A stretch of DNA of 64,000 nt. Source: an uncultured Clostridia bacterium. GTDB taxonomy: Bacteria > Bacillota > Clostridia > Christensenellales > Aristaeellaceae. Position numbers and translations under genes: made by a program. Shown here in pieces: positions 6,176-58,848 of the stretch (positions within the stretch are counted from its first letter, which is position 1; the number at the start of each line of letters is the position of its first letter). The notes below the pieces were generated by a model that was not told where the DNA came from, searched no databases, and saw nothing but the letters and a program-made list of their open reading frames with translations. The stretch is from assembly GCA_947165425.1 (NCBI GenBank), contig CAMVAJ010000003.1, positions 24,824-88,823 on the forward strand. The letters run 5' to 3'.

Positions 6176-6285
6176 ATTCACAGGCCGATTCCTCCCGCAA
6201 AAAAGTGATGCGCGATCAAAGGCTTCCGCTGGGGACATTGTAGCACAAAAGGCGCCGGGGCACAATTCCTATCGCGACGGGTGTG

Positions 6286-6344: not shown

Positions 6345-6456
6345 ATTTCTTGCGAAAACTGCGCATGCCGTCCTTGCGGAGAAGAGAACGCATGTTCTAT
6401 ATTCGCTGCGCCGGGAGGGAGCGCCTCCCGAGAGACGAGAGAAGGATGGTGAACCA

Positions 6457-12428: not shown

Positions 12429-12678
12429 ACTTCGACCTCACAGCCTGGAGCGCCTTTTTCGCGTCCTTTGTTTTTCCCTGCGCGATCTGCTCCTCCGAGG
12501 TCTCCAGGTCGGCGTACATCTCCCATTTCCGGCGGGCCGCCTCGTAATAATCCATGCTCATCAGCACCATGTCCCCATAGCCGTTTTTGGTGATATAGAT
12601 GGGCTCGTTCAGGCTGTGACACAGATCGGAGATACCGGCCGTATTCTTCAGATCCTTGATGGGAATGATCTGTGGCAT
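12418..12678 (-). CDS. Type II antitoxin (Phd/YefM- or RelB-like)
   Basis: 86 aa with N-terminal IPIKDLKNTAGISD...EPIYITKNG, typical of Phd/YefM-type antitoxins. It is in an operon with the RelE/ParE toxin. Confidence 0.75.
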   Translation of the reverse strand: MPQIIPIKDLKNTAGISDLCHSLNEPIYITKNGYGDMVLMSMDYYEAARRKWEMYADLETSEEQIAQGKTKDAKKALQAVRSKYGL

Positions 12679-20831: not shown

Positions 20832-21871
20832 AACAGAACCGGCAGTTCCAGTTTGTCCTGTATCAGACAGCGTCCGAGAACGTATCCGTCAACGCATTGG
20901 TCAAAGACGAGACCTTATGGCTGACACAAAAGGCCATGGCGGAGCTGTTCGGCGTGCAGACACCCGCCATCAGCAAGCATTTGAAACATATTTTCCAAGA
21001 AGGGGAATTGCAGGAAAAAGTGGTTGTTTCCAAAATGGAAATACCCACTCCCCACGGAGCGCTTTCCGACAGAACGCAAGTGCACGAAACCACCCTGTAC
21101 AATCTCGATGCCATCATTTCGGTCGGCTATCGTGTCAACTCTCGCAGAGCCACTCAGTTTCGCATCTGGGCAACCGGAGTGCTGCGGGAATACATGCAAA
21201 AGGGATTTGTGTTAGATGATGAGCGCCTGAAGCAGGGACAGTCTATCTTTAATTCAGACTATTTCCGGGAACTGCTGGAACGGGTACGCTCAATCAGATC
21301 CAGCGAGCGCCGGATATGGCAGCAGGTGACGGATATTTTTGCCGAGTGCAGCATAGATTATGACAAGGATTCGGACATCACGCGGTCTTTCTACGCAATG
21401 ATCCAGAATAAGTTTCATTATGCCATCACACATGCGACGGCGGCAGAAATCATTTATGACGGGGCAGACCATAACGCGGCCCATATGGGCCTGACCACAT
21501 GGAAAAACGCGCCGGAGGGCCGCATTCTCCAATCGGATGTTGTCATAACGAAGAACTATCTCACGGCGCAGCAGATCCATCAGCTGGAGCGGGCGGTATC
21601 AGCTTACTTCGACTATATTGAGGGCTTGATTGAAAGAGAAAACACATTTACAATGGCGGAGTTTGCGGAGAGCGTAAACGCATTTCTGAGCTTTAACCGC
21701 TATGATATACTCCCGGACAGGGGCAGGGTAAGCCATGCTCAGGCGGTGGAAAAGGCGAAGGCTGAATACCTCATTTTTAATCCGACGCAGCGCATCGTTT
21801 CGGATTTTGACCTTGAAGTTCAGCGGCTCCTGGACGGAAACAGTGAGAAGGAGTCATCCAATACCAGATAA
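20828..21871 (+). CDS. RhuM-family virulence/DNA-binding protein
   Basis: VSVNALVKDETLWLTQKAMAELFGV....ISKHLKHIF.EGEL and VGYRVNS.RATQFRIWAT motifs typical of RhuM. It is visibly AT-richer than its flanks, with ATGA overlap to the upstream gene. Confidence 0.8.
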   Translation: MKQNRQFQFVLYQTASENVSVNALVKDETLWLTQKAMAELFGVQTPAISKHLKHIFQEGELQEKVVVSKMEIPTPHGALSDRTQVHETTLYNLDAIISVGYRVNSRRATQFRIWATGVLREYMQKGFVLDDERLKQGQSIFNSDYFRELLERVRSIRSSERRIWQQVTDIFAECSIDYDKDSDITRSFYAMIQNKFHYAITHATAAEIIYDGADHNAAHMGLTTWKNAPEGRILQSDVVITKNYLTAQQIHQLERAVSAYFDYIEGLIERENTFTMAEFAESVNAFLSFNRYDILPDRGRVSHAQAVEKAKAEYLIFNPTQRIVSDFDLEVQRLLDGNSEKESSNTR

Positions 21872-40742: not shown

Positions 40743-41449
40743 TGGCCACGACACTGCCGCTGCGGCACGAGCTGAAGTTCATCATCAGCCCGCAGCAGGA
40801 GTATGTGCTCTCCCGCGCCCTGGACCGCGTCCTGCGCAGGGACCCCAACGGGGATGAGCGCAACGAGTACGCCATCCGCTCGCTCTACTTCGATACGGTC
40901 TTCAACGACGCGCTCTACGACAAGCTCGACGGCGTGCAAAACCGCGACAAGTACCGCATCCGGATCTATAACTACTCCGACCGGGTGATCAAGCTGGAGT
41001 GCAAGACCAAGATCGGCTCCCTGATCTCCAAGCGCTCCATCTCCATCCCGCGCGACCTGTGCGAGCAGCTGATGGCCGGCGACCCCGCCGGCCTGGAGCG
41101 CACCCGCTCCGGCCTGCTCAACGACGTCTTCCGCGAGATGACGATCCATCTGCTGCGCCCCGTGGTGCTGGTGGACTATGTGCGCGAGGCCTATCTGCAC
41201 GACGCGGAGGAGGTGCGCATCACCCTCGACAAGCATCTGCGCTCCGGCCTGCGCTCCACCGACCTTTTCAACCCCCGCGTCCCGACCGTCGCCCCCTTCG
41301 AGCACGACGAGACGATCCTGGAGGTCAAGTACAACCGCTCCCTCCCGCCCTACCTCCGCGATCTCCTCTCCACCTACACCGGCAACGCCATCCACTCCGC
41401 GGTGAGCAAATACACCTGGTGCCGGACGTTTGAGGGGCTGGAGGCGTAA
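40742..41449 (+). CDS. VTC-domain polyphosphate-polymerase-like protein (CYTH-like fold)
   Basis: RHELKF.IS and RSLYFDT motifs at the N-terminus as in VTC-domain proteins. The start codon immediately follows the DUF4956 stop. Confidence 0.7.
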   Translation: MATTLPLRHELKFIISPQQEYVLSRALDRVLRRDPNGDERNEYAIRSLYFDTVFNDALYDKLDGVQNRDKYRIRIYNYSDRVIKLECKTKIGSLISKRSISIPRDLCEQLMAGDPAGLERTRSGLLNDVFREMTIHLLRPVVLVDYVREAYLHDAEEVRITLDKHLRSGLRSTDLFNPRVPTVAPFEHDETILEVKYNRSLPPYLRDLLSTYTGNAIHSAVSKYTWCRTFEGLEA

Positions 41450-41459
41450 GGGGCAAAGC

Positions 41460-41494
41460 AAAAACCCATCGGCGCAGACCGGTGGGTTTTGTTT
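41460..41494 (+). terminator. Intrinsic terminator of the CotH-DUF4956-VTC operon
   Basis: ACCCATCGG-CGCAGA-CCGGTGGGT hairpin (one G-U pair) followed by TTTTGTTT. Confidence 0.75.
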
Positions 41495-41517
41495 CGCTGA
41501 AAGGGTGGTTTGCAGGC

Positions 41518-41546
41518 TTGACATGGCTGATAATGGCGGATATAAT
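41518..41546 (+). promoter_or_regulatory. Perfect-consensus sigma-A promoter (TTGACA-17-TATAAT)
   Basis: TTGACA 41518-41523, 17-nt spacer, TATAAT 41541-41546. No + strand CDS follows it. Confidence 0.6.
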
Positions 41547-41552
41547 AAAGGC

Positions 41553-41641
41553 AGGGAGAGTAGCATCTCTGCGGAGCCTTTACCTGTTCAGGTTAAGCCT
41601 CTGGAAAAGCCACTGCGTACTGCGAATACGCGGTGGCTTTT
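41553..41641 (+). ncRNA. Candidate small RNA (about 90 nt) bounded by the consensus promoter and an intrinsic terminator
   Basis: Predicted TSS is about 7 nt after the -10 element. Terminator GCCACTGCGTA-CTGCGAA-TACGCGGTGGC (41609-41637) is followed by TTTT. No plausible ORF with an RBS lies inside. Confidence 0.35.
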
Positions 41642-41679
41642 AAGATCTCTTGATTGCCTGAATCAAGAGGATGATAACC

Positions 41680-41973
41680 TCAATTTACCCCTCCACCCTC
41701 TCCAGCAGCTCCCGCAGGATGCGGGCGGCTCTGTCGTGGGGTTGATCTCGCATTCTCTTCTTCGACAAGTCTAATCAGTTCGCTTGCGGTGATACCGAGG
41801 GTATCCGCGATTCGCCAAAGCGTGTCGAGCCTAACGGTTTTACGGCCGTTTTCGAGCATCACAAGATGGCTGCGTGCAACACCGGACAGGGCGGAGACTT
41901 CCTCCTGGGTGAGCATTTTCTGAATGCGGAGTCGCGCGATGACGATCCCAAATGCTTTGCTGCTATAGGGCAT
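41680..41973 (-). CDS. XRE-family HTH regulator with a C-terminal tail read out of the direct repeat
   Basis: AGGAGG RBS 8 nt upstream of ATG 41973. HTH LTQEEVSALSGVARSHLVMLENG. The last 15 codons lie in the 45-bp repeat in a frame different from the helicase frame. Confidence 0.75.
   Translation of the reverse strand: MPYSSKAFGIVIARLRIQKMLTQEEVSALSGVARSHLVMLENGRKTVRLDTLWRIADTLGITASELIRLVEEENARSTPRQSRPHPAGAAGEGGGVN
41685..41729. repeat. 45-bp direct repeat, left copy (displaced copy of the helicase gene 3-prime end)
   Basis: TTACCCCTCCACCCTCTCCAGCAGCTCCCGCAGGATGCGGGCGGC is identical base for base to 44595-44639. Confidence 0.95.
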
Positions 41974-42066
41974 TATGACAACCTCCTTTTTAGTGCCTCT
42001 ATAACAGCGCATGTTTTTTTAGCGATAGGAAAAGGCGCTGCGGCAAAGCAGCGCCCGGTTAAAGAC

Positions 42067-42513
42067 TTAGCGGAATACGATGCCCGCCATGATCGTGAGG
42101 CTGAACGCGACGCCGGACTTCAGCTCGTCCCCCTCGTTAAGCGTAATATAGATTGTTTCAGGCTCCTCGCCCTCGCCCGGCGCAGAGACAACTTCCCACA
42201 TAAGTTGCTTTCCTTTTCCTTGCTCAGAGTAGATTGTTACGCTGCCCCATTCTTCCCCTTTTGCAAGGCAGGTAAACATATATTTTCCTGCCGGGATGTC
42301 TACGCCTGCGATATAGGCGCCCTTGGGAAGTGTTGCGGTTTTCTCGATGCCCCTTTTGACAAGCTCTTTGGTGACTTGATCATGGAGAACCGAGATCTCG
42401 TCGTCGGTTAGCTTTGACAGGTCGATTTCCTCGGCGGCGGCATGAACTGAGCAGAACACCACCGCGAGCAGCAGGAGACTGGCAACGACTCTGACAAATC
42501 GATTCTGTTTCAT
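42067..42513 (-). CDS. Secreted protein of unknown function
   Basis: Signal peptide MKQNRFVRVVASLLLLAVVFCSVHAAAE. AT-richer codon usage than the surrounding chromosome. Confidence 0.55.
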   Translation of the reverse strand: MKQNRFVRVVASLLLLAVVFCSVHAAAEEIDLSKLTDDEISVLHDQVTKELVKRGIEKTATLPKGAYIAGVDIPAGKYMFTCLAKGEEWGSVTIYSEQGKGKQLMWEVVSAPGEGEEPETIYITLNEGDELKSGVAFSLTIMAGIVFR

Positions 42514-42661
42514 GAAAACCCCACCTTTCTGCAGCTGACTGCGCAGAAAGGATAGCAGAAAACGAAACGAAAATTGTCCACTTTAGATAACATAATCCCA
42601 AAGAGAAGAGATTTACTTCTTTGTTTTTCAAATCGGATGCCCAAACAGGGCAAAAGTCCCT

Positions 42662-42689
42662 TTGAATCCATTGCTGTTTGTGGTAAAAT
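42662..42689 (+). promoter_or_regulatory. Promoter for the mini-lipoprotein / DUF4230 genes
   Basis: TTGAAT, 16-nt spacer ending in TGTGG, TAAAAT. Confidence 0.5.
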
Positions 42690-42733
42690 GCAAGTGATGA
42701 GGTCTCAGTAGTTTTAGAGAAGGGGCAGTACGA

Positions 42734-42826
42734 ATGAACATACTGAAAAAAGTTCTCCTGATCCTTATGCTGATTATTATGTGTATGCTCCTGACAGCAT
42801 GTGGAGAAAGAGTAATATACTATTAA
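42734..42826 (+). CDS. 30-codon lipoprotein-signal-peptide mini-ORF (not in the ORF track)
   Basis: MNILKKVLLILMLIIMCMLLTACGERVIYY contains a classical lipobox L-T-A-C, which would leave an 8-residue mature peptide CGERVIYY. It lies 45 nt after the promoter -10 and 53 nt upstream of the first DUF4230 gene. Confidence 0.35.
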   Translation: MNILKKVLLILMLIIMCMLLTACGERVIYY

Positions 42827-42879
42827 CAAGGCGGTAAGCGCTGATAAGATAACGGAGAGTTATAAAAGGAGACGATTAA

Positions 42880-43479
42880 ATGGAGGAGAGCTACACTGAA
42901 AAAAGAGATTGGCAAAAAAACATTTTAGATGCTTTATTAGTCTTTGGTATAATTGCTTTACTCTTCCTCGTGTGGAATCTCTTAGGCGGAGATAGTTTGC
43001 CATTTATTCAGAAACAGAGTTATTCAAATTTGATAAATACGGAAAAGATAGCAGCGCTTTCTGTTTCTGATTTCGTATATAATGGAATAGTACAGGCGTA
43101 TAAAGAAAACGGAGATCATGATTATAATGTATTATATAAGTCTACCGTAAAAGTAAGCGTAAATGCAGAGAAAATCGCCTTTTCTGTCGATGAAGAAAAC
43201 AAAAAAGTGACTTTTATGTTTCCAGAGCTTACTCTTGATGCGCCTTTAGTTGATGTGGATTCTATTAGCATTATACCAAACAGAAATGATTTGTTTATGA
43301 GTGATATAGTTGCATCATGTCGAAAGGATGCTCTTGCCGAAGCAAATGAATCCTCTAAACTCATTTCTGTGGCCCAAGATAACTTGCGGTCAATTATCGA
43401 AGCATGGTATTCACCGGTAATGAAAGAGTATTCGTTTGAATTCATATTTGATACTGTACAAGGTGGTGAAGCAGAATGA
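42880..43479 (+). CDS. DUF4230-like membrane-anchored protein (paralogue 1)
   Basis: N-terminal TM anchor (ILDALLVFGIIALLFLVWNLL) followed by a segment IAALSVSDFVYNGI similar to the conserved DUF4230 core. ATGA overlap with the next gene. Confidence 0.5.
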   Translation: MEESYTEKRDWQKNILDALLVFGIIALLFLVWNLLGGDSLPFIQKQSYSNLINTEKIAALSVSDFVYNGIVQAYKENGDHDYNVLYKSTVKVSVNAEKIAFSVDEENKKVTFMFPELTLDAPLVDVDSISIIPNRNDLFMSDIVASCRKDALAEANESSKLISVAQDNLRSIIEAWYSPVMKEYSFEFIFDTVQGGEAE

Positions 43480-44129
43480 AAAGGCTCTCTGCCCGGCAGT
43501 TGGTAACGGTGATGGTGCTGATTGCTGATGTTCTTTTATGTGCCATATATATAAACAAAAATGAACAGCAACAATCTTTTATGGAAAAACACATATCAAC
43601 ACCGGGTATTCAGCGAATTTGTGAGCTCGCAACACTTGAATGCTTTTATCATAATGTTGGAGAATGGGGCAAGGCGGGGAATCTTGTAGGATATGGCGCT
43701 AAAAAAACCTGGGTCGAATATGATGGTTCTGTACGAGTGGGAGTAAAAGGGGACAAGATTAAAGTATCTGATCCAGATCAGGATAATGTTATTACTGTGA
43801 TGATTCCTGCTGCAACTGTTTTAAGCAAAGATTTAGACGAAGGCTCTATCCATGGAATTGATAGCGAATCGAGCCTTTGGGGGTTTATTCCTTTGTATGA
43901 TCATGTAACGGTTGAAGATAGGAAAAACGCTCTTGCAAAAGCGCAAGAAGATATGGAAAACAGTTTATTGCACGAAGGCGGCAAGATATTTATTGAGGCT
44001 CAAGAACGAGCAAAAATGATTATTGAAAGAAATATCGTTGCATTGGGTGAAGCATCTGGAAAGCATTATAAGGTGCGATTCATTGATGCAGCAGAGACGC
44101 AAAACGATAATTCAGGAGCTAACAAATAA
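43476..44129 (+). CDS. DUF4230-like membrane-anchored protein (paralogue 2)
   Basis: N-terminal TM anchor followed by IQRICELATLECFYHNVGEW, a pattern typical of DUF4230. Confidence 0.55.
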   Translation: MKRLSARQLVTVMVLIADVLLCAIYINKNEQQQSFMEKHISTPGIQRICELATLECFYHNVGEWGKAGNLVGYGAKKTWVEYDGSVRVGVKGDKIKVSDPDQDNVITVMIPAATVLSKDLDEGSIHGIDSESSLWGFIPLYDHVTVEDRKNALAKAQEDMENSLLHEGGKIFIEAQERAKMIIERNIVALGEASGKHYKVRFIDAAETQNDNSGANK

Positions 44130-44192
44130 TAGAGATGCAATATTTGAAAAGCGACTAATAGTATCATTTCAGAATAAGATGCATTATCTGGA

Positions 44193-44333
44193 AACCGGCC
44201 CTTCCACCACCGCCCCGCGAGGGCGGCGGTCCCCCTCCCCAGCAAGCTGGGGAGGTTTTTAGATACTGCACTTTAGCTCAATCTCCCCATCTCCGATGGG
44301 GAGATGTCGCCGCAGCGACAGAGGGGCCGGTCT
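44193..44333 (-). repeat. Mosaic repeat, subfamily 2, lacking module B (copy g, inverted orientation)
   Basis: ACCGGCCC...GGGCCGGT termini. It contains CCGCCCCGCGAGGGCGGCGG, CCTCCCC-AGCAAGC-TGGGGAGG followed by TTTTT (44234-44260), TCTCCCCATCTCCGATGGGGAGA, and TGTCGCCGCAGCGACA. Confidence 0.9.
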
Positions 44334-44350
44334 TCTGCCAAAAAGATAAG

Positions 44351-44383
44351 GCCACCGCATACTCAAGATGCACGGTGGCTTTT
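44351..44383. terminator. Terminator-like hairpin resembling the one at 41609-41641
   Basis: GCCACCGCAT...ATGCACGGTGGC followed by TTTT. The stem sequence GCCACYGC/GCRGTGGC is shared with 41609-41637. Confidence 0.6.
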
Positions 44384-44415
44384 GCATCGTGAGATGCTTC
44401 TACTGCAAAATGCAA

Positions 44416-44595
44416 TTACCATTCTTCGCTCCCCACGGGCTCTCCCCAGTCATACTCCCCGGACACGAGCAGTTTACCGCCATATGCTTCCGCGCGCTCC
44501 TGCAACGATCTGTGTTGGAAGGGCGCCGGATGAACGTCCTGCGAGGAAGATGTCTCGCGGGCGTTTTCCTTGCGGCTGTTTTCGTTTTTCAACAT
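44416..44595 (-). CDS. Orphan MazE/PemI-type antitoxin C-terminal tail (59 aa), no AbrB-like DNA-binding domain and no toxin partner
   Basis: It ends in YDWGEPVGSEEW; E. coli MazE ends in DWGEPKDKEVW. Its ATG shares one base with the helicase TAA stop (TAATG). Confidence 0.45.
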   Translation of the reverse strand: MLKNENSRKENARETSSSQDVHPAPFQHRSLQERAEAYGGKLLVSGEYDWGEPVGSEEW

Positions 44596-44639
44596 TACCC
44601 CTCCACCCTCTCCAGCAGCTCCCGCAGGATGCGGGCGGC
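44595..44639. repeat. 45-bp direct repeat, right copy (functional 3-prime end of the helicase gene)
   Basis: Identical to 41685-41729. It encodes the last 14 codons plus the stop (..AARILRELLERVEG*). Confidence 0.95.
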
Positions 44640-46874
44640 GGTGGCCTTGCCGTCGGGGCCGATCTCGCCCACGGGGCCGGCGCAGGAGGGGCAGCCGTGC
44701 TCGCAGCCGCAGTGGGTCACGATGTCGAGGCACTTCTCCAGAAGCATCCCCTGCATGCCGAAGGCCTTCTGGGAGAGGCCCACGCCGCCGGGGCAGTTGT
44801 CGTAGAGGATGACGGTGGGCTGGTCGGTGATGGGGCTCTTCACCTGGTAGATCACGGCCAGATCCTGGGGCGAGCACATCAGGTACAGCGGAGCGACGAT
44901 GCGCAGCAGGTTCGTCACGCCGAGCATGCCGTTTTTCAGCTGGTCGGAGGCGAGGGACGCGCACAGCTCCTCCGGCAGCGTCCACCACATGGCCTGGGTG
45001 TGCATCTCCAGTTCCGGCAGGCGCACCTTGCCGAAGCCCAGAGTCTCGTGGGTGTCGAAGCGGATCTTCTTGAACATGGTCACCAGGCTCAGCACCTTCA
45101 CCTCGCCGAAGGCGCTGGTGACGCCGCGGTGCGCCTGCTCCTCCTCGATCTCCAGCAGGGAGAGGGAGACGTTGAGGTCCGCGTCGGTATAGTAGCCCAC
45201 GTCCACCTGCCGGATGAAGGCCTTGCAGGCGTCGAAGTCCAGCTTCTCCACCTGGTACTGCTGGCCCTCGTGCATGTAGATGGCGTTCTCGTGCAGGAGC
45301 ATGGGGACGGTGTAGCGGTCCATCTCGCCGATCACCTTGTGCCGCGCCGGGTCGGTGATGTCGATGATGACGAAGTTCTCCCCCGCGGGGGAGCGCAGGC
45401 TGATCTCGCTGGCGGGGAAGTCCTCCGCCATCCAGTAATACTTTCCCTCCCGGTGGCGGAGAATGTGCCCCTCCTCCAGGAAGTTCAGGAAGGTCTCCGG
45501 CGCGGGCGCGTTCCCGAAGGCGTCCCCGTCCTCGAAGGGCAGCTCGTAGGCCGCGCATTTGAAGTGGCTCATGAGGACGTAGAGGTTGTTCGGGTTGAGC
45601 AGGGCGTGCTCGGGGCTGGCGGAGAGGAAATAGTCCGGGTGGGTGACGATGAACTGGTCGATGGCGGCGGAGGAGGCCACGAAGAAGACGATGGAGGAGG
45701 CCTTGCGGCGGCCCGCCCGGCCCGCCTGCTGCCAGGCGCTGGCGATGGTGCCGGGGTAGCCGCAGAGCACGCAGGCGTCCAGCGCGCCGATGTCGATGCC
45801 CAGCTCCAGGGCGTTGGTGGAGACCACCGCGTCGATCTCCCCGGCCCGCAGGCCGCGCTCGATCTCCCGGCGCTGGGTCGGCAGATACCCGCCCCGGTAG
45901 CCCCGGACCCTTCCGGCGTTGCCCAGGGGATCCCGGGCCATGTCCTTGAGATACCGGGTCAGCACCTCCACGGTCACCCTCGCCCGGGCGAAGGTGATGG
46001 CCTGGATGCCGTTTTTCAGCAGCAGGCCGGCGATCTCCCGGACCTCGGGCACGACGCCGCGGCGGATGCCCAGCTGCCGGTTGACCACCGGGGGATTGTA
46101 GAACACAAAGTGCCGCTCGCCCATGGGCGCGCCGTTGTCGTCCACGAGGGTCACGGGGCGGCCGGTCAGCGTCTCGGCCAGCTCCTTCGGGTTGGCGATG
46201 GTGGCGGAGCAGAGGATGAACTGCGGATGGCTGCCGTAGAAGGCGCACAGCCGCATCAGCCGCCGCAGCACGTTAGCCAGGTTGGAGCCGAACATGCCCC
46301 GGTAGGTGTGAATCTCGTCGATGACAATGTAGCGCAGGTTCTCGAAGAGCTTGACCCACTTGGTGTGGTGGGGGAGGATGCCCGAGTGGAGCATGTCGGG
46401 GTTAGTGACCACGATGTGCCCCGCCTGCCGGATGGCGCGGCGGGCCGCCGCCGGGGTGTCCCCGTCGTAGGTGTAGGTCTTGATGTCCACGCCCATGGCC
46501 TCGATCAGCTCGTACAGCTCGCTGACCTGGTCGGCGGAGAGGGCCTTGGTGGGGAAGAGGTACAGCGCCCGGGCGTCCTCGTCCTGCAGGATCGCGCTGA
46601 GGACGGGGAGGTTGTAGCACATGGTCTTGCCGGAGGCCGTGGGCGTGACGACCACGATATCGCGCCCGGCCATCACCTCGCGCAGGGCGTGGGCCTGGTG
46701 GGTGTAGAGGCGGTAGATGCCCCGCTTCTGCAGGGGCGGGAGCAGCCGGGGGTCCACCTCCGGCGGGAAATCGGCGTACCGCGCCTCCCGGGCGGGCATG
46801 ACCTCCCAGCGGGTCACGTTCTCCATAAAGGCCGGGTCGTTGCGCAGCACCTGCGCCAGCTGATCGACGTTCAC
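44595..46874 (-). CDS. DEAD/DEAH-box helicase with C-terminal four-Cys DUF1998 domain (MrfA/YprA-like)
   Basis: AAGGAGG RBS 8 nt upstream of GTG 46874. Walker A TPTASGKT, VIDEIH (DExH), and C-terminal CGCEHGCPSC. The longer track ORF (to 49652) is read-through on the antisense strand of other genes. Confidence 0.85.
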   Translation of the reverse strand: MNVDQLAQVLRNDPAFMENVTRWEVMPAREARYADFPPEVDPRLLPPLQKRGIYRLYTHQAHALREVMAGRDIVVVTPTASGKTMCYNLPVLSAILQDEDARALYLFPTKALSADQVSELYELIEAMGVDIKTYTYDGDTPAAARRAIRQAGHIVVTNPDMLHSGILPHHTKWVKLFENLRYIVIDEIHTYRGMFGSNLANVLRRLMRLCAFYGSHPQFILCSATIANPKELAETLTGRPVTLVDDNGAPMGERHFVFYNPPVVNRQLGIRRGVVPEVREIAGLLLKNGIQAITFARARVTVEVLTRYLKDMARDPLGNAGRVRGYRGGYLPTQRREIERGLRAGEIDAVVSTNALELGIDIGALDACVLCGYPGTIASAWQQAGRAGRRKASSIVFFVASSAAIDQFIVTHPDYFLSASPEHALLNPNNLYVLMSHFKCAAYELPFEDGDAFGNAPAPETFLNFLEEGHILRHREGKYYWMAEDFPASEISLRSPAGENFVIIDITDPARHKVIGEMDRYTVPMLLHENAIYMHEGQQYQVEKLDFDACKAFIRQVDVGYYTDADLNVSLSLLEIEEEQAHRGVTSAFGEVKVLSLVTMFKKIRFDTHETLGFGKVRLPELEMHTQAMWWTLPEELCASLASDQLKNGMLGVTNLLRIVAPLYLMCSPQDLAVIYQVKSPITDQPTVILYDNCPGGVGLSQKAFGMQGMLLEKCLDIVTHCGCEHGCPSCAGPVGEIGPDGKATAARILRELLERVEG

Positions 46875-47111
46875 GCCGGAGACCTCCTTATGATGCGCAA
46901 TCGAAAAAGGGAAAATCAGTTCGCATGGATTGTACCACGGGCGGCGCGAAATGACAAGGCGAACAGCGCTGTTTCCACGCCCTCCGCGGCCGTCCGCCGC
47001 CCAGAAAAGCCGATTGCGCTTTTCACGCAAAGAGGGTATAATAGGAATGCGGCACTTTTCGCGTGCCCGCAGTTCCGACATAGGATATGGGATCATAAAG
47101 GAGGTCACCCG

Positions 47112-48287
47112 ATGTACGCTGTTTGGAAGCGCCTGCTGTCCCTGCTGCTGGCTCTGGCTGTTCTGGCTCCGCTCACCCTCGGCGCCGCCCTGGCGGAGGA
47201 AGAGGAGGAGCTGATGCTGGAGGAGGACGTGATGCTGGAGGAGGACGAGGAGGTCGCCTTCATCATCGGAGACGGCAAGGAGGTCACGGAGGAGGATCTG
47301 GACGCGCTGGAGATCGACGACTCCATCGATCCGAACGACCTGGAGATCAACACGGCGCTGTCGGACAAGGTGATCAACATCCTGCTGATCGGCGTGGACT
47401 CCCGGGAGACGAGCCTGCAGTCCTCCTCGAGCCTGCTGCACAACGACGTCACCATGATCCTCTCCGTCAACACGGAGGACGGCTCGATCAAGCTGACCAG
47501 CGTGCTGCGCGATTTGTATACCAGCATCCCGGGCTACAAGGACAAGGGCCGGCTGAACGAGGCCTTCGCCCGGGGCGCGGGCAAGGCGGGCAACATCAGC
47601 GGCGGCGCGTCGCTGACCATGCGGACGATCAACCACCTCTTCGGGATGAACATCTCCCAGTATGTGGTCATCAACTTCTACGGCGTGGCCTCCATCATCG
47701 AGCAGCTCGGCGGCATCGATCTGCGGCTGACCCGCGGCGAGGCCTACGCGATCAACTATTACCTCGAGAAAAACGGTAGCCGCATGAAGTATGACACCAA
47801 GGGCAACGACAACCGCGAGAAGCTGACCCTCCCCAAAGGCAACAAGGAGGAGGAGATGGAGGAGCGGCATCTGGACGGCATGCAGGCCCTGATGTACGCC
47901 CGCCTGCGCACCGGCATGAAGGAGCGCACCGGCGACTTCTGGCGGACCAACCGCCAGCGCTATCTGCTGGAGACCCTGATGAAGAAGGTGCTCGCGGGCA
48001 TCGACCTGAACAAGCTCGGGAACCTGGTGCAGATCGCCTACCCCTATGTGCAGACCAACATCCCCGCCGGAACGCTCCTGCAGATGGCCATCGGCGTCAT
48101 CAGCCAGGGCGACCTGATGGGCAAGCTGGAACGGGGCGAGCCGATGATCGAGCAGCTCTCCATCCCCATGGAGAACCACTACAGCTACGACCAGGTGAAC
48201 GGCGCCAGCGTCATCACCATGACGACCCAGCAGTGGAGCGACTCGAAGGATCGGATCCACTACTTCATCTACGGGGAGAGCAACTGA
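47112..48287 (+). CDS. LytR-CpsA-Psr (LCP) family cell-envelope glycopolymer transferase
   Basis: Signal/anchor LLSLLLALAVLAPL, an acidic linker, then INILLIGVDSRE...D.MILSVN...G...LTSVLRD.Y, typical of LCP proteins. Confidence 0.8.
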   Translation: MYAVWKRLLSLLLALAVLAPLTLGAALAEEEEELMLEEDVMLEEDEEVAFIIGDGKEVTEEDLDALEIDDSIDPNDLEINTALSDKVINILLIGVDSRETSLQSSSSLLHNDVTMILSVNTEDGSIKLTSVLRDLYTSIPGYKDKGRLNEAFARGAGKAGNISGGASLTMRTINHLFGMNISQYVVINFYGVASIIEQLGGIDLRLTRGEAYAINYYLEKNGSRMKYDTKGNDNREKLTLPKGNKEEEMEERHLDGMQALMYARLRTGMKERTGDFWRTNRQRYLLETLMKKVLAGIDLNKLGNLVQIAYPYVQTNIPAGTLLQMAIGVISQGDLMGKLERGEPMIEQLSIPMENHYSYDQVNGASVITMTTQQWSDSKDRIHYFIYGESN

Positions 48288-48310
48288 GCCCCGGCTCCGC
48301 GGGGACAAGC

Positions 48311-48336
48311 AAAAAGCCCGGTTCGCCGGGCTTTTG
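48311..48336 (+). terminator. Intrinsic terminator after the LCP gene
   Basis: AGCCCGG-TTCG-CCGGGCT hairpin with an A-run before and TTTT after. Confidence 0.8.
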
Positions 48337-48386
48337 CGCGGAGGGCGGAAGCAATCCGAACGTTCGGATCCTTCATCCACCGGGCC

Positions 48387-48491
48387 TGTGCACAAATCTG
48401 TGGATAATGTGGAAAACTTTGATAAAATGTCGCCAAAAAGACATACATTTTCGCCCTTTGTCCCGATTTGCCTGTGGATAACGGTGGATAA
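48387..48491 (-). promoter_or_regulatory. Cluster of five DnaA-box-like 9-mers, all in one orientation
   Basis: On the + strand: TGTGCACAA (48387), TGTGGATAA (48399), TGTGGAAAA (48408), TGTGGATAA (48473), GGTGGATAA (48483). TGTGGATAA is the exact reverse complement of the consensus TTATCCACA. Confidence 0.6.
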
Positions 48492-48617
48492 CCATGGAAA
48501 GCCTGTGAATCTCCCCGACAGGGGAACAGGGCGCGGAACGCATTGTGAAGGAAATGTATCAGAATACGGGCCGGGGGAACCTCCAGAAAAAGACCCATTT
48601 CCGCGGCGCGCCCCGGT

Positions 48618-49670
48618 ATGACCAAAAAACGAAAAAAGAGGAACAGAACATTGAAACTGCTTACGGCCGTCGTGCCATGCTATAATTCCGCCGACTACAT
48701 GGAGAGGGCCGTGTCCGGCCTGCTGACCGGCGGGGAGGAGATGGACATCCTGCTGGTGGACGACGGCTCGACCGACGGCACGCCCGCCCTCTGCGACCGC
48801 CTCGCGGCGGAGAACCCCGGCGTGGTCCGGGTCATCCACCAGGCCAACGCCGGCCACGGCAGCAGCCTGAACCACGGCATCGGGACCGCCCTCGCCCCCT
48901 ACCTGCGGGTGGTGGACTCCGACGACCGCATCGACCCGGAGAGCCTGCGGGAGCTGCTGGCCCTGCTGCGGGAGCACACGGCGCCCGGGACCCAGGCCGA
49001 CCTGGTGGTCACGGACTACGTCTATGACAACGCGGACCAGGAGGCGGTCTTCGGCATCAGCTACCACCACGTCATGCCCCAGGGCCGGCTCTTCGGCTGG
49101 GATGAGTGCCGCCGCTTCGGCTTCACGAAGCAGTTCATGATCCACTGCCTGATCTACAACGTGAATCTCCTGCGGGAGAAGGGCTACCGCCTCCCGGAGC
49201 ACACCTTTTACGAGGACAACCTCTACATCTACCAGCCGCTGCCCTGGACGCGGAAGCTGCTCTACCTGCACAGGCCCCTCTACGGCTACTTCATCGGCCG
49301 GCAGGACCAGTCCGTCAACGAGCGGAACATGGTCCGCCGCGTGGATCAGCTGACGGAGATGATCACGCAGATGGCCACCACCTACACCCTGGCCGAGCTG
49401 GACGCCCAGCCCCGACGGCTGCGCGGCTATATGATCAACAACGTGGCGGCGCAGATCTGGCCCCTGTGCGCCCTGCAGTTCATCGCGGACACCCCGGAGA
49501 GCGACGCCCTGAACGCCTCGCTGTGGGCGCGGATCAGGGCCTTCGACCCCGACCTGTACCGCAAGCTCCGCACCCATCCGGTCAGCATGACCACCCACCT
49601 CCCCGGCCGCCTTGGCCGCAGGGTGCTCATCGGCGCGTACCGACTGGGGCACAAGATTATCAAATGGTAG
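48618..49670 (+). CDS. Family 2 glycosyltransferase
   Basis: AVVPCYNSADYM and LLVDDGSTDGT motifs of GT-A fold GT2 enzymes. Confidence 0.8.
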   Translation: MTKKRKKRNRTLKLLTAVVPCYNSADYMERAVSGLLTGGEEMDILLVDDGSTDGTPALCDRLAAENPGVVRVIHQANAGHGSSLNHGIGTALAPYLRVVDSDDRIDPESLRELLALLREHTAPGTQADLVVTDYVYDNADQEAVFGISYHHVMPQGRLFGWDECRRFGFTKQFMIHCLIYNVNLLREKGYRLPEHTFYEDNLYIYQPLPWTRKLLYLHRPLYGYFIGRQDQSVNERNMVRRVDQLTEMITQMATTYTLAELDAQPRRLRGYMINNVAAQIWPLCALQFIADTPESDALNASLWARIRAFDPDLYRKLRTHPVSMTTHLPGRLGRRVLIGAYRLGHKIIKW

Positions 49671-49704
49671 TGCTCCTCTTCATCAGAGGGTGAGTGCTGG
49701 CAAA

Positions 49705-49878
49705 AGACCGGCCCCTCTGTCGCTGCGGCGACCTGGCCTGTCGGCATTCTGCGCTGAAAGCATGCCACTGGCATGTTTTCCGGGCGCTCCGAATCCCCAT
49801 CGGAGATGGGGAGATTGGGCTAAAGCGCAGGATCTAAAAACCTCCCCAGCTTGCTGGGGCGGTGGAAGGACCGGTCTC
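49705..49878 (+). repeat. Mosaic repeat, subfamily 2, with module B, lacking the second GC hairpin (copy h)
   Basis: GACCGGCCCCTCTGTCGCTGCGGCGAC, then module B with GCATGCCACTGGCATG, then TCCCCATCGGAGATGGGGAGA, GGGCTAAAG, and CCTCCCCAGCTTGCTGGGGCGGTGGAAGGACCGGTC. Confidence 0.9.
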
Positions 49879-49928
49879 TGAATTGAGCGTTTCAATCAGC
49901 GTATCGCGACAAAGCAGGAGGAAACCCC

Positions 49929-51308
49929 ATGAACAGACACCTCTCGGAGATGACCCTGGCTGAGCTGACCGATCCGGCGGGTATCCGCTGCGCCTGCGGG
50001 AAGATCCACCGCTGCGGCCTGCGCTATTTCAAGGCCGGCCCCGGCGCGGTGGAGACCCTGCCCGAGGGCCTGCGCCGGCAGGGGCGGACGCGCCCCTTCG
50101 TGGTGATGGACGAGCATACCGAGGCCGCCGCCGGCGAGAAGGTGCGCGGCGCCCTGCGCGGCGCCGGGATCGCCTTCTCCGAGTATGTCTTCCCCCACCG
50201 GGAGGGCAAGATGGAGCCGGACGAGTGGGCCATGGGCGCCCTCGCGATGGCCTTTGACCCGGCCTGCGACATCGTGCTGGCGGTGGGCAGCGGCGTGATT
50301 AACGACTGCTGCAAGGTGCTGGCCCACACCTGCGCGCTGCCCTGCGCGGTGGTCTGCACCGCGCCCTCCATGGACGGCTACTGCTCCAACTCCGCCTCCA
50401 TGATCCAGGACCGGCTCAAGGTCAGCCTCTACAACGCCTGCCCGGAGATCATCGTGGCGGACACGGACATCCTGGCCACCGCCCCGGACATCATGCTGCA
50501 GGCGGGCCTGGGGGACATGCTGGCCAAGTATATCTCCGTGTGCGAATGGCGCATCGCCCATCTGGTCAACGGCGACCCCTACTGCGAGGAGATCGCCGGC
50601 ATGGTGCGCGCCTGCCTGAAGAAGATCGTGGACCAGGCCGACGGCCTCATGCGCCGGGAGCCCGCGGCGCTGACCGCCGTGGTGGAGGGCCTGGTCATCA
50701 GCGGCATGTCCATGGCCTTCGCGGAGATCAGCCGCCCGGCCAGCGGCCTGGAGCACTATTTCTCCCACCTGTGGGAGATGCAGGCCCTGCGGCAGGGCAA
50801 GCCCTCGGACCTCCACGGCATCCAGGTGGGCGTGGGGACGCTGCTGACCCTGTGGATCTACGAGCACGCGCTGAACCTGGAGAAACCGGACGCCGCCAGG
50901 GCCGAGGCCATGATGCGCGGCTTCTCCCGCGAGGCGTGGGAGGGCACGATGAAGCGCATCTTCGGGCCGGTCTTCCCCACGGTGGCCGCCATCAGCGAAA
51001 AGACGGGCCGCAACCGCCCCGAGACCCAGGCGGCCCACATGGCGAAGATCGAGGCCCATTGGGACGAGATCCGCGCCATCATCCGCGAGGAACTGCCCAG
51101 CCGGGATTGGGTGGACGGCCTGATGCGCCGCTGCGGGATGCCGCGGGTCCCCGCGGACCTGGGCCTGACGGTTCAGGACACCCTCGACGCCCTGACCGGC
51201 AGCCGGGAGATCCGGGACAAATATCTGACCTCCAGCATGCTGTGGGACATGGGCCTCCTCGCCGGGACCGCGGAGATGTTGAAGCGGGATTACCCCTGGG
51301 AGGGCTGA
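49929..51308 (+). CDS. Iron-dependent alcohol dehydrogenase superfamily protein, probably sn-glycerol-1-phosphate dehydrogenase (AraM/EgsA-like)
   Basis: DHQS/Fe-ADH-like layout (VGSGVINDCCK, GLGDMLAKY, metal-His region HYFSHLWE). The subfamily call rests on overall resemblance only. Confidence 0.55.
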   Translation: MNRHLSEMTLAELTDPAGIRCACGKIHRCGLRYFKAGPGAVETLPEGLRRQGRTRPFVVMDEHTEAAAGEKVRGALRGAGIAFSEYVFPHREGKMEPDEWAMGALAMAFDPACDIVLAVGSGVINDCCKVLAHTCALPCAVVCTAPSMDGYCSNSASMIQDRLKVSLYNACPEIIVADTDILATAPDIMLQAGLGDMLAKYISVCEWRIAHLVNGDPYCEEIAGMVRACLKKIVDQADGLMRREPAALTAVVEGLVISGMSMAFAEISRPASGLEHYFSHLWEMQALRQGKPSDLHGIQVGVGTLLTLWIYEHALNLEKPDAARAEAMMRGFSREAWEGTMKRIFGPVFPTVAAISEKTGRNRPETQAAHMAKIEAHWDEIRAIIREELPSRDWVDGLMRRCGMPRVPADLGLTVQDTLDALTGSREIRDKYLTSSMLWDMGLLAGTAEMLKRDYPWEG

Positions 51309-54174: not shown

Positions 54175-54585
54175 TCAGCGCGTGAGGTGAATGCAGTCCT
54201 CCTCGTAATGCTCGAAGTTTCCATCATGGGAGATCAGCAGCAGACCCTCCGTTTTGGCCTGCGCGATCAGCATCCGGTCGAAGGGATCCAGGTTGCTGAG
54301 CGTGTGGCCGTCCCGGATCCGCAGATGGCGTACAGACAGGATATGGGAGGGCAGAATGTTCAGGCAGGAATATCCCGCGAGCTCGCAGAAAGCCTGAATC
54401 TGCGCCTCATGGTAGGGGCATTTCTCCGGTGACTTCTGGTTTTTGAGCGCAATCTCCCACAGGGAGACCGCGCTGTAGCAGACATGGTTTTCAGGGGACA
54501 GAATCATTTCTGTCTCCTGTTTGCTTAGACGCGGGCTTTCGGTCAGCGCCCAGATCAGGACATGGGTGTCCAGGAGGATGTTCAT
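54175..54585 (-). CDS. vapC: Type II toxin, VapC family (PIN domain)
   Basis: ILLDTHVLIW start with the conserved Asp, and D.FDRMLIAQA typical of PIN toxins. It shares 1 nt with the antitoxin gene (ATGA). Confidence 0.85.
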   Translation of the reverse strand: MNILLDTHVLIWALTESPRLSKQETEMILSPENHVCYSAVSLWEIALKNQKSPEKCPYHEAQIQAFCELAGYSCLNILPSHILSVRHLRIRDGHTLSNLDPFDRMLIAQAKTEGLLLISHDGNFEHYEEDCIHLTR

Positions 54586-54842
54586 CAGATCTCCTCCTCC
54601 ATCAAGAATTCTTTTTCCATGTCGATGCTGTTGAACGCGTCCAGGGACTCGAGCGCGGGGAGCTGTCCCTTGGCGATGCCGATGCGCCTGGAGGTGTCCG
54701 CTTCGTAGGGGATCAGCTTTGCGGCGGGCTTCCCGTTGCGGGTGATCACGATAAAGGGCTCTTTGCGTTCCGAGAGAGAAGCCACATACTTGGAAAGATT
54801 GGTCTTCGCCTCAAAAATGCTGACGGTGGTCATGGCCAGCAC
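54585..54842 (-). CDS. Type II antitoxin, Phd/YefM family
   Basis: 85 aa with VSIFEAKTNLSKYV......EPFIVITRNGKP, typical of Phd/YefM. It lies upstream of vapC. Confidence 0.8.
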   Translation of the reverse strand: MLAMTTVSIFEAKTNLSKYVASLSERKEPFIVITRNGKPAAKLIPYEADTSRRIGIAKGQLPALESLDAFNSIDMEKEFLMEEEI

Positions 54843-56774: not shown

Positions 56775-57521
56775 ATGAAGTTTCAGGAATACGGGCCGGA
56801 GCAGAAAGACGTGATCCTGCTGCTGCACGGCGGCGGTCTGTCCTGGTGGAACTATCGGGAGGCGGCGGAGCTTCTCCGGGATGAATACCACATCATCCTG
56901 CCGATCCTGGACGGACATGCCGGAAGCGACCGCCCCTTCACGACGATCGAGGACAACGCCGCCGAGCTCATCTCCTTCATCGACGAGCGTCTGAACGGCG
57001 CCGTGCTGCTGATTGGCGGTCTCTCCCTGGGCGGACAGATCCTACTGGAGATGCTGTCGCGGCGCAGGGAGATCTGCTCCCATGCGCTGGTGGAGAGCGC
57101 GGCGGTCATCCCCTCGAAGCTGACCAACGCGCTGATTGCGCCGGCCTTCGGCGGCAGCTATGGGCTGATCCGGAACAGGAGCTTTGCCAGAATGCAGTTT
57201 CAGTCTCTGCACATGAAGCCGGAGTTGTTTGAAGACTATTACCGGGACACCTGCCGGATTCAGAAGCGGGACATGATCGCTTTCATGAAGGCGAACACGT
57301 CCTATGCGCTGAAGGACGCTTTCAGGGATTCAGCCGCGGAGATCCATGTCTATGTCGGGGAGAAAGAGACGGGAGAAATCCGGCGCTCGGCGGAGGCAAT
57401 CTGCAGGCTGCGTCCGGCCTGCCGACTGCACCGGATGCCCGGCCTGCGGCACGGCGAATTCTCCATCAACCACGCGGACCAATACGCGGACGCCATACGG
57501 CAGATCATTCAGGGTGGTTGA
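56775..57521 (+). CDS. Alpha/beta-fold hydrolase
   Basis: HGGG oxyanion region (LLLHGGG) and nucleophile elbow GLSLGG. Confidence 0.75.
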   Translation: MKFQEYGPEQKDVILLLHGGGLSWWNYREAAELLRDEYHIILPILDGHAGSDRPFTTIEDNAAELISFIDERLNGAVLLIGGLSLGGQILLEMLSRRREICSHALVESAAVIPSKLTNALIAPAFGGSYGLIRNRSFARMQFQSLHMKPELFEDYYRDTCRIQKRDMIAFMKANTSYALKDAFRDSAAEIHVYVGEKETGEIRRSAEAICRLRPACRLHRMPGLRHGEFSINHADQYADAIRQIIQGG

Positions 57522-57643
57522 CTCTTCTCTTTGGGATTGATCCAGTTTCAGTCATCTGCGATAGATTTGACTTTGGAGCTGAAAGCCAGGTTCAGGAGCG
57601 AAGGGATTGTCGTGTAAATCTGAGCATACCGAGGGAACAGGCT

Positions 57644-58126
57644 ATGATACATTTGGAGAAAGTGACAGGTAAAAATGTTTGGGATATCCTGAAGCTGGAG
57701 GTTGCTGAAGAGCAGAGGACGTTTGTCGCAGCCAATGAAGTCAGTATAATCGAAGCATATATCGCAATCACCGGAAACGGCCATGCGTTTCCGTTTGGGA
57801 TATATGACAACAATACGCTTGTGGGCTTTCTGATGATCGGTTTTGATGTGGACGATGATTGGGAAGATGCGCCCCAAATTGCAAAGGGCAATTACAATCT
57901 CTGGCGGCTGATGATTGATAAGAACTATCAAGGTCATGGCTTTGGCAAAGAAGCAGTCAGACTTGCCTTAGACTTTATGAAAACACAGCCATGCGGAGAG
58001 GCCGCGTTCTGCTGGCTTTCATATGAACCGGAGAACGAGGCTGCCCGCCAGCTGTATCGATCCTTTGGCTTTGCAGAGACAGACGAGATGGATGGAGAAG
58101 AAATCATAGCGGTCATGAAGCTGTGA
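57644..58126 (+). CDS. GNAT-family N-acetyltransferase
   Basis: Acetyl-CoA binding region YQGHGFGKEAVRLAL, 160 aa from ATG 57644. Confidence 0.75.
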   Translation: MIHLEKVTGKNVWDILKLEVAEEQRTFVAANEVSIIEAYIAITGNGHAFPFGIYDNNTLVGFLMIGFDVDDDWEDAPQIAKGNYNLWRLMIDKNYQGHGFGKEAVRLALDFMKTQPCGEAAFCWLSYEPENEAARQLYRSFGFAETDEMDGEEIIAVMKL

Positions 58127-58159
58127 AACAGAACCGAAATCACTTGCCAGGGGAAGGAA

Positions 58160-58377
58160 ATGCTGGCAAAGCTCAGGAGCGAAGGAATTGTGCAAATACT
58201 CGGAAGGGGAGGAATAATCGCGTATCATATTGGCAGAGTATTCAGCGAGGGAGAACTGAATCGCGATACTTCTGGCGAGTTTTCGACAGAAGTACGGGAA
58301 ACGCTTCCTCGCCATGATGGACGCGCTGGGATACGATGTGCGGCTTACTTATGAGAAGCGGGAAACCGCTGAGTAAA
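58160..58377 (+). pseudogene. Frameshifted debris of a small DNA-binding-type gene
   Basis: Two frames read AKLRSEGIVQILGRGGIIAYHIG and FRQKYGKRFLAMMDALGYDVRLTYEKRETAE*. A degenerate copy of the first part, with stops, lies at 57583-57630. Confidence 0.3.
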
Positions 58378-58401
58378 ATCGGGGTTTGAAGGGAGAATCA
58401 C

Positions 58402-58848
58402 ATGCTCAGATATGTCAAACTGCGGGAAATGCCGGAATTGAAAGAGCCCGCTGCAGAGTGGTTTCACCATAAGTGGGGAGTACCCAAAGAAGCCTATCTT
58501 GAATGTATGAACGCCTACCTGGATGAAAAGACAGAATACGGTTGGTATCTATGCCTGGATGATGATCAGATCGTTGGTGGCACAGGTGTGATCGAAAACG
58601 ATTTTCACGACAGGAAAGACTTGTTTCCAAATGTCTGCGCAGTATACACCGAGGAGTCATACCGGAAAAAAGGCATTGCCGGAAACTTGCTGAACCTGGC
58701 AGTAGACGATCTGCGATCAAAAGGAATTACACCGGTGTATCTCGTTACAGGTCATACGGGATTCTATGAGCGCTACGGCTGGGAATTCTTATGTATGGTT
58801 CAGGGCGACGATGAGCCTGATATGACACGCATGTATATTCACAGATGA
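58402..58848 (+). CDS. GNAT-family N-acetyltransferase
   Basis: YRKKGIAGNLLNLAV acetyl-CoA motif, 148 aa. Confidence 0.75.
   Translation: MLRYVKLREMPELKEPAAEWFHHKWGVPKEAYLECMNAYLDEKTEYGWYLCLDDDQIVGGTGVIENDFHDRKDLFPNVCAVYTEESYRKKGIAGNLLNLAVDDLRSKGITPVYLVTGHTGFYERYGWEFLCMVQGDDEPDMTRMYIHR

Follow-up and report, generated by a model that had tools for sequence, protein, structure and literature searches.

A 2.9-kb integrase-less islet behind an mrfA-type helicase gene is a presence/absence polymorphism in uncultured Clostridia of the sheep and goat gut

INTRODUCTION

Prophage 21 and e14, both found in icd of Escherichia coli, are integrative elements that supply a substitute 3′ end for the gene they target. 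Integrative mobile elements exploiting Xer (IMEX), for example the CTX phage, use the host recombinases XerCD at dif, a site laid out as two 11-bp arms around a 6-bp centre. Cis-mobilizable elements (CIMEs) of Firmicutes, such as those at the 3′ end of fda in Streptococcus thermophilus, have lost their integration and transfer genes and kept attL and attR (PMC5704250), and the defence islands associated with tmRNA and tRNA genes carry a tyrosine integrase, flanking direct repeats, and intY together with alpA in 20 to 55 kb of DNA (PMC12595487). Here, we describe a locus in a 64,000-nucleotide stretch, referred to below as the window, from an uncultured Clostridia bacterium of the Aristaeellaceae (assembly GCA_947165425.1, contig CAMVAJ010000003.1, positions 24,824 to 88,823 of the forward strand). 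In it, 2.9 kb of low-GC DNA, the islet, lies between two perfect copies of a 45-bp sequence that forms the 3′ end of an MrfA/YprA-type helicase gene, and strains that are ∼99% identical to the window carry the site without the islet.

The islet shares two structural characters with CIMEs, namely, att-like repeats that include the terminal part of its target gene and the lack of integration and transfer genes. Its direct repeats, which are putative att sites, comprise the 3′ end of a protein-coding target, and integrase, relaxase, and transfer genes are missing between them. The cargo is a small mosaic, and the site is empty in close strains. It differs from CIMEs in that no cognate integrative and conjugative element (ICE) or integrative and mobilizable element (IME) with an integrase is known for the helicase site and no conjugation or mobilisation remnants are left in it. 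Moreover, an mrfA/yprA-type helicase is a new target, uncultured ruminant-gut Clostridia are a new host, and 2.9 kb is small.

As with prophage 21 and e14, the copy of the target 3′ end on the element side runs up to the stop codon, the gene remains intact, and the original end is orphaned at the far junction. However, those elements encode an integrase beside the junction, and their substitute end diverges downstream of a short core, whereas the islet is identical over 45 bases up to the stop codon, has its diverged part upstream, and encodes no integrase. Like IMEX, the islet is integrated, lacks a recombinase of its own, and is flanked by target-site repeats, but the repeat is a GC-rich helicase coding end rather than dif and shows neither 11-bp arms nor a 6-bp centre. 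With the defence islands it has in common the 3′ end of a conserved gene, a flanking direct repeat, variable cargo, and the absence of autonomous transfer genes; in contrast to them, it lacks intY and alpA, measures only 2.9 kb, and holds no recognisable defence genes (the PADLOC library was not run).

RESULTS

A perfect 45-bp repeat duplicates the helicase gene end

The 45-mer TTACCCCTCCACCCTCTCCAGCAGCTCCCGCAGGATGCGGGCGGC is present in two perfect copies, at 41685-41729 and 44595-44639, and the window contains no third copy even when three mismatches are allowed. None of 100 dinucleotide-preserving shuffles matched it, with a chance expectation of 0 copies, and the pair is the sole long direct repeat in the window that brackets a low-GC segment. 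An initial annotation made from the sequence alone had described the right copy as the true helicase end and the left one as an orphan, and we could reproduce both the coordinates and the identity. It had also considered whether the 45-mer might be a generic repeat, which it is not: apart from the two copies in the window, exact and codon-degenerate scans of JGI metagenomes (two scans) and a scan of IMG/VR gave 0 matches. The only internal symmetry, read directly from the sequence, is a 6-bp inverted repeat with a 3-nt spacer. The target site comprises the following features.

44595-44639, minus strand: right 45-bp copy, the functional helicase 3′ end, consisting of 14 codons (AARILRELLERVEG) plus TAA; helicase-proximal junction
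41685-41729, minus strand: left 45-bp copy, the orphan, a displaced helicase 3′ end with the original hairpin and terminator coming next
44595-46901, minus strand: the target gene, an MrfA/YprA-type helicase with DEAD, Helicase_C, WHD_HRQ1, and MrfA Zn-binding (MZB) domains
41609-41669, no strand assigned: bidirectional terminator hairpin and 9-bp hairpin, located directly 3′ of the helicase stop codon in empty-site strains

Both structures that had been proposed beside the left copy are real. The hairpin with the 9-bp stem (−11.3 kcal/mol) lies at 41647-41669, one base off the 41646-41668 originally assigned, and the terminator hairpin at 41609-41641 is strong (−23.3 kcal/mol), with a T-run on both strands. 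Past these, to the left of the left 45-mer, lies a convergent DUF4956-VTC gene pair.

Near-identical strains carry an empty site

Conspecific DNA was obtained from Logan contigs of gut-metagenome runs aligned to the window and by an exact-protein look-up of the VTC protein. A 1,272-nt Logan contig (L095, run X2) joins 41684 directly to 44595, skipping exactly 2,910 nt, with 45 shared letters, and a loose end in run X4 makes the same join. The VTC protein look-up led to L093, a contig that is 10,196 nt long and belongs to an independent ENA assembly; it has a single 45-mer and reads in the order CotH, DUF4956, VTC, terminator, hairpin, one 45-mer, helicase. L093 is 98.8% identical to the window over 8,347 nt up to 41729 and 99.0% identical over 1,896 nt from 44595. 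The empty site that the initial annotation had suggested looking for is thus found in L093 and L095, each with one 45-mer between the VTC-terminator-hairpin side and the helicase. Since strains ∼99% identical to the window precisely lack the islet, it is a real insertion.

Occupied junctions were likewise found outside the window. The left junction (XRE regulator gene, 45-mer, hairpin, terminator) is spanned by contigs of two other ENA assemblies (L081 and L082) and by an X22 contig, and L092 and contigs of X3, X4, and X5/X6 cross the right junction (helicase, 45-mer, small open reading frame [ORF]). Gut metagenomes of sheep and goats that were published in several studies between 2013 and 2025 contain the islet at low depth. 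We conclude that it is a presence/absence polymorphism among ∼99% identical strains in the gut of sheep and goats.

Other species were uninformative for the empty site, as 80 GTDB representatives share the helicase (56 to 87% amino acid identity) and none of the flanking genes. Among the exact-protein look-ups, those with a 79-amino-acid (aa) XRE variant and with the VTC protein returned contigs; for the 97-aa XRE protein of the window, DUF4230 protein b, and the signal-peptide protein secP (all described below), none was on record.

The DNA between the repeats is foreign in composition

The 2,865 bp between the two copies (41730-44594) have a GC content of 0.447, compared to ∼0.65 in the flanks (0.655 and 0.642), and in the islet core (42540-44190) the value is 0.376. 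GC content at third codon positions (GC3) is 0.54 in the XRE gene, 0.62 in the signal-peptide gene, and 0.29 and 0.33 in the two DUF4230 genes, against 0.92 to 0.97 in host genes of the window. Consistent with what had been noted from base composition alone, the DNA between the 45-mers is compositionally foreign, and its codon usage is unlike that of the host. The rightmost 400 bp of the islet are GC-rich because a dispersed host repeat (∼44190-44345) and the small ORF beside the helicase gene lie there.

The islet ends in a helicase-like segment that stops at the stop codon

Read in the direction of the helicase gene, the empty site consists of the helicase, the 45-mer, and the hairpin-terminator. 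The occupied locus reads helicase, 45-mer, the ATG of a small ORF, cargo, XRE gene, ∼22 nt of helicase-like sequence, 45-mer, and hairpin-terminator. The ∼22-nt stretch is one further feature.

41730-41751, minus strand: degenerate helicase-like continuation on the islet side of the left repeat; matches 44647-44668 and overlaps the last XRE codons

Upstream of the orphan and the true copy, TGTCGT-GGGGTTGATCTCGC aligns with TGCCGTCGGGGCCGATCTCGC at 17/21 positions with one gap and an offset of 6 to 7 nt. Degenerate homology inside the left copy had been put forward as a possibility, and it is statistically real: the shuffle p value is 0.0014, and the alignment score was reached by none of 437 control 40-mers from the helicase gene and by one of 565 islet 40-mers, presumably the helicase-like segment itself. 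Past the stop codon, the surroundings of the two 45-mer copies share nothing (p = 0.95). The islet therefore carries a helicase-like segment of ∼74 nt, of which the distal 45 nt equal the host gene and which ends exactly at the stop codon. One-sided homology together with the exact stop at TAA is the layout expected of an attachment region that supplies a substitute end to its target gene. Moreover, one crossover within the 45-mer between an empty site and a circle made up of the XRE gene, the helicase-like segment with its 45-mer, and the small ORF reproduces the observed locus.

Two small gene units make up the cargo

Between the left 45-mer and the host repeat, the islet encodes the following.

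41680-41973, minus strand: XRE-family helix-turn-helix regulator (HTH_3), 97 aa in the window; codon 80 (41736-41734) is CGA
42067-42513, minus strand: signal-peptide protein (secP), 148 aa, no family match; conserved upstream partner of the XRE family in related Clostridia
42734-42826, plus strand: lipoprotein-like ORF with lipobox LLTAC, 30 aa; first of a low-GC three-gene unit
42880-43479, plus strand: DUF4230 protein a, 199 aa, GC3 of 0.29
43476-44129, plus strand: DUF4230 protein b, 217 aa, GC3 of 0.33; nearest database relative only 60% identical

The XRE regulator, secreted protein, mini-lipoprotein, two DUF4230 proteins, and MazE tail listed in the initial annotation were all found as described. 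When all islet ORFs were scanned against Pfam and NCBIfam, HTH_3 and DUF4230 were the only families returned. No ORF matched a recombinase, relaxase, transposase, or phage family, which agrees with the statement in that annotation that integrase, relaxase, and transposase genes are missing. A scan of IMG/VR with the XRE protein found nothing, and the islet had no BLASTN match in the plasmid and phage collections.

Homologues of the XRE protein with 63 to 84% identity and 76 to 81 aa are common in related uncultured Clostridia. In both contexts examined (n = 2) a secP homologue precedes the XRE homologue, and the positions differ: in one species the neighbour is rplL, and in another the genes lie between those for an ABC transporter and an aldehyde oxidoreductase. 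The secP gene and the 76- to 81-aa XRE gene stay together as a conserved pair, with the promoter region between them conserved as well, and the chromosomal position of the pair varies among uncultured Clostridia (loci L083-L090); no integrase and no flanking repeats were found at these homologues in other genomes. The lipoprotein ORF, which is 50 aa long in its relatives' version, and the two DUF4230 genes likewise form a unit that is conserved in relatives at no more than 60% identity, with no mobility genes nearby. A confident AlphaFold2 model of DUF4230 protein b (predicted local distance difference test score, 82.8) begins with a helix at the N terminus, after which comes a sheet with long helices packed on it. 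It has no significant match in the PDB, the best being SPLUNC1/BPI-like (E = 0.018; template modelling score, 0.2 to 0.3). No function is known for the cargo, and nothing ties it to defence, virulence, or resistance.

The cargo varies among strains. In L081, L082, and X22, which come from three other samples, a TGA lying 6 nt short of the 45-mer ends the XRE gene, and the native product has 79 aa. The window has CGA instead, and translation continues through the repeat for 18 more residues. The XRE gene of the window does end inside the repeat, as the initial annotation noted, but its att-derived C terminus is a strain-specific read-through caused by a stop-codon mutation rather than an established design feature of the islet. 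L081 is identical to the window from the terminator to ∼42110 and only ∼70% identical thereafter, and beyond ∼42110 its signal-peptide gene matches the type seen in another species (L087). This pattern marks L081 as a recombinant with a breakpoint near 42110.

The helicase-proximal end carries a truncated mazE and an inserted host repeat

Next to the helicase gene, the islet contains three features.

44416-44595, minus strand: MazE-tail ORF, 59 aa; its ATG overlaps the helicase TAA
44348-44383, minus strand: hairpin resembling a terminator, downstream of the truncated mazE; 75% similarity with the 41606-41641 hairpin
44190-44345, no strand assigned: GC-rich dispersed host repeat resembling a miniature inverted-repeat transposable element (MITE); inverted copy of 49698-49866

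Residues ∼24 to 59 of the 59-aa ORF correspond to the C-terminal tail of MazE/AbrB antitoxins, with a breakpoint near 44523, ∼70 nt from the repeat. A word-indexed search with this ORF yielded only two homologues; an exhaustive phmmer search gave 117 hits, in which residues ∼24 to 59 fall on the C termini of 52- to 120-aa proteins. Three full-length relatives of the tail (P0185, P0186, and P0194) carry an N-terminal MazE_antitoxin (SpoVT/AbrB) domain, PF04014, so that the ORF was correctly named a MazE tail. It lacks the N-terminal DNA-binding domain and is directly followed by a terminator, and no mazF toxin gene is present. A functional MazEF module was rejected, as only the C-terminal tail remains and no MazF/PemK toxin gene is adjacent.

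The dispersed repeat must have been inserted after the islet arrived, because it is absent from L092, and its depth in gut metagenomes reaches the hundreds, far above that of the flanks. Together, the truncated mazE and the inserted host repeat point to decay. The earlier suggestion of a decayed island fits the substitute end, the truncated mazE, and the secondary host repeat; its recombinase origin is not established.

The dispersed repeat is intergenic, has internal hairpins, and resembles MITEs or repetitive extragenic palindromes; its core, GTCGCCGCAGCGACAGAGG, occurs 7 times in the 64 kb, with core motifs at 4649, 6935, 18193, 25144, and 55145. Part of it, along with an AT-rich segment, is contained in a direct repeat of ∼125 nt at 4643-4764 and 6929-7051 (58 nt perfect, then 67 nt at 91%; spacing, 2,286 nt) that brackets two genes, at 4850-6265 (minus strand) and 6283-6873 (plus strand). 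A second truncated mazE-tail ORF of 60 aa, starting with MLK like the first, was observed in another genome (L091, 1049-1231), 70 nt past the secA stop codon; low-GC genes come after it, and no flanking repeat surrounds it in that 2.4-kb contig.

The hairpin at 41606-41641 is a dispersed sequence in its own right, occurring in several metagenome contigs with 0 to 3 mismatches and wholly different flanks. We therefore rejected the idea that the two terminator-like hairpins are the sign of a longer duplication, since the dispersal of this palindromic repeat explains their 75% similarity.

The helicase end in other genomes

The initial annotation had proposed that the helicase 3′ end might be an unrecognised integration hotspot. 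As a general statement this is not established: the helicase end was repeated within 8 kb downstream in none of the 80 species, and the downstream ORFs that were scanned had no integrase domain. In most related species, an mrfB-like exonuclease gene with an RNase_H fold (RNase_H_2 plus TPR) directly follows the mrfA-type helicase gene, and the window lacks mrfB. Two of the best-matching species have an extra gene between mrfA and mrfB, an extracytoplasmic function (ECF)-type sigma factor gene in L001 and one for a 228-aa protein of unknown nature in L004. At a coarse scale, the region downstream of the mrfA-type helicase gene is prone to rearrangement.

Over the helicase end, the truncated mazE, and the terminator, L092 matches the window at 98%, with one single-nucleotide polymorphism within its 45-mer, and then runs into unrelated low-GC DNA without the host repeat. 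This single 564-nt contig of ∼2× coverage is the only hint of a second cargo at the helicase end.

Other features of the window

A perfect sigma-70 consensus (TTGACA, 17 nt, TATAAT; 12/12) lies on the plus strand in the gap between the VTC and helicase genes, ∼60 nt upstream of the 41609-41641 hairpin. The region 41518-41641 (plus strand) could be a small RNA gene of ∼90 nt; an Rfam search of 41300-50000 returned no match. In the empty-site strain, the −10 box of this consensus reads TATCAT.

Other islets of lowered GC3 are found at 12114-12678 (ParE/Phd toxin-antitoxin), 20828-21871 (a RhuM-family gene), 54175-54842 (PIN/Phd toxin-antitoxin), and 57518-58848 (two GNAT acetyltransferases). We rejected these as products of the same mechanism, as none has flanking direct repeats of at least 20 nt.

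DISCUSSION

As to mechanism and ALTERNATIVES, we consider it moderately likely that the islet is a decayed, att-flanked remnant of the CIME type, which arose by site-specific, Campbell-type integration with a substitute helicase end and subsequently lost its recombination genes. A circular element would have undergone recombination with the chromosome within the final 45 bp of the mrfA-type helicase gene, and its attachment region would have brought along a substitute helicase 3′ end of ∼74 nt that terminated exactly at the stop codon. Such a crossover would have kept the helicase gene intact, now finished by the element's copy or by one identical to it, and would have displaced the original gene end together with the hairpin and terminator by 2.9 kb. 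The insertion would have been made by a site-specific recombinase, which we infer to have been of the tyrosine type, with its gene lost later. The truncated mazE shows that a deletion took place; starting ∼70 nt from the core, it would have removed the DNA adjoining the attachment site along with the N-terminal half of mazE. An integrase gene would normally be expected where this deletion occurred, so that the deleted DNA may have included it. During decay, the host repeat would have been inserted, and recombination with related secP-XRE modules would have made the cargo mosaic. What remains under this scenario are two small conserved gene units (secP plus XRE, and the lipoprotein plus two DUF4230 membrane proteins) and no mobility gene. 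Recombination between the two 45-mers can probably remove the islet and restore the empty allele, and renewed movement of the islet would require a matching recombinase from another source.

Several observations speak against a recombinase-made remnant. There is no integrase in the islet or among the scanned genes of the 64-kb window, which was annotated only in part. No integrase-bearing intact relative was found at this site in GTDB (80 species), JGI metagenomes, IMG/VR, plasmids, or phages, and in none of the 80 related species is the species' own helicase end repeated within 8 kb downstream. Neither a circular (attP) junction nor a tandem form was seen in 12 runs, which were covered as assembled contigs only, at 2 to 10× depth. 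The islet holds no remnants of conjugation, mobilisation, or phage genes that would reveal a parent element. Its secP-XRE and DUF4230 units have counterparts in relatives that are ordinary chromosomal modules with neither mobility genes nor flanking repeats nearby, and the 45-mer, as far as can be judged from its letters, has no obvious recombinase core-site architecture. Of the original proposal of site-specific integration into a gene 3′ end, the footprint and the empty site stand; the involvement of a recombinase is not established, given the lack of an integrase, a circular junction, and an intact cognate element.

No dedicated recombinase need have been involved. A circularised fragment from a related donor, carrying 45 to 74 bp of helicase 3′ sequence, could have entered by a RecA-mediated, Campbell-type single crossover, with the same topology of a direct duplication flanking the insert and an empty site elsewhere. 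Such an event would explain the missing integrase, the homology does run past the perfect block, and the L081 mosaic shows that homologous exchange operates on the islet. However, a homology of 45 bp is close to the shortest on which RecA recombination works efficiently. The helicase-like segment, moreover, has the stop codon as its exact end and is joined to an XRE gene unrelated to it, thereby resembling a maintained substitute end rather than a chance piece of donor DNA, and its 45 nt of identity give way abruptly to ∼80% with a 6- to 7-nt indel, which is unlike the divergence of orthologous helicase genes. We regard a RecA crossover as unlikely.

More improbable is an origin in situ, in which an old local duplication of the helicase end was followed by accretion of genes and the "empty" strains are deletions between the 45-mers. 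The empty allele that we observed is exactly what a deletion between 45-bp direct repeats would leave, and the modules of differing GC content, the host repeat, and the diverged islet alleles suggest long residence. Nevertheless, the sharp edge between 45 perfect bases and degenerate sequence would need recurrent exchange confined to the 45-mer, and a duplication ending precisely at the stop codon would be a coincidence. A GC3 of 0.29 to 0.33 in a genome of GC3 0.95 means that no amelioration has taken place, and the flanks of occupied and empty sites differ by only ∼1%.

We find it doubtful as well that the islet is still working, moved in and out in trans by an integrase whose gene lies at another place in the genome or on a helper. 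In favour of this, the two repeats have stayed perfect, near-identical strains differ in whether the site is occupied, several host animals and studies yielded the islet, and one short contig suggests different cargo behind the same helicase-proximal arm. Yet no circular junction was seen and no helper was identified, with 64 kb of the genome available, and the truncated mazE and inserted host repeat signal decay. There is only a small chance that the mrfA-type helicase end of this ruminant-gut lineage is a live attachment site, at which different small cargos are exchanged behind a conserved arm (45-mer, truncated mazE, and terminator) by a recombinase encoded elsewhere. If true, this would imply a family of integrase-less islets mobilised in trans, for which L092 is the only direct hint.

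Other explanations can be set aside. A transposon or insertion sequence was rejected for want of a transposase and of an inverted repeat pairing the islet ends; to our knowledge, a 45-bp duplication is also far longer than the target-site duplications of transposons. An element encoding its own tyrosine recombinase (prophage, ICE, IME, or genomic island) was rejected because no integrase gene lies inside the islet, and a Xer-dependent IMEX was rejected because the 45-mer is helicase coding sequence without a dif-like layout. Finally, a chimeric join at the shared 45-mer is refuted by contigs from independent samples and assemblers that span both junctions, even though contigs break at the 45-mer in several assemblies (L094 ends exactly there), as a true repeat with both alleles in one sample would cause them to do.

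Although target gene and host lineage are new, this is a kind of object that is already known and fairly ordinary, and the islet reveals no new mechanism. With it, the 3′ end of the mrfA/yprA-type helicase gene joins the list of protein-coding integration targets. On the reading that we favour, an integrase-less, att-flanked remnant can persist as a strain polymorphism, here in the sheep and goat gut across several studies. With both alleles documented in nature, the locus offers a clean and well-bounded case of small accessory units entering and leaving the genomes of uncultured gut Clostridia.

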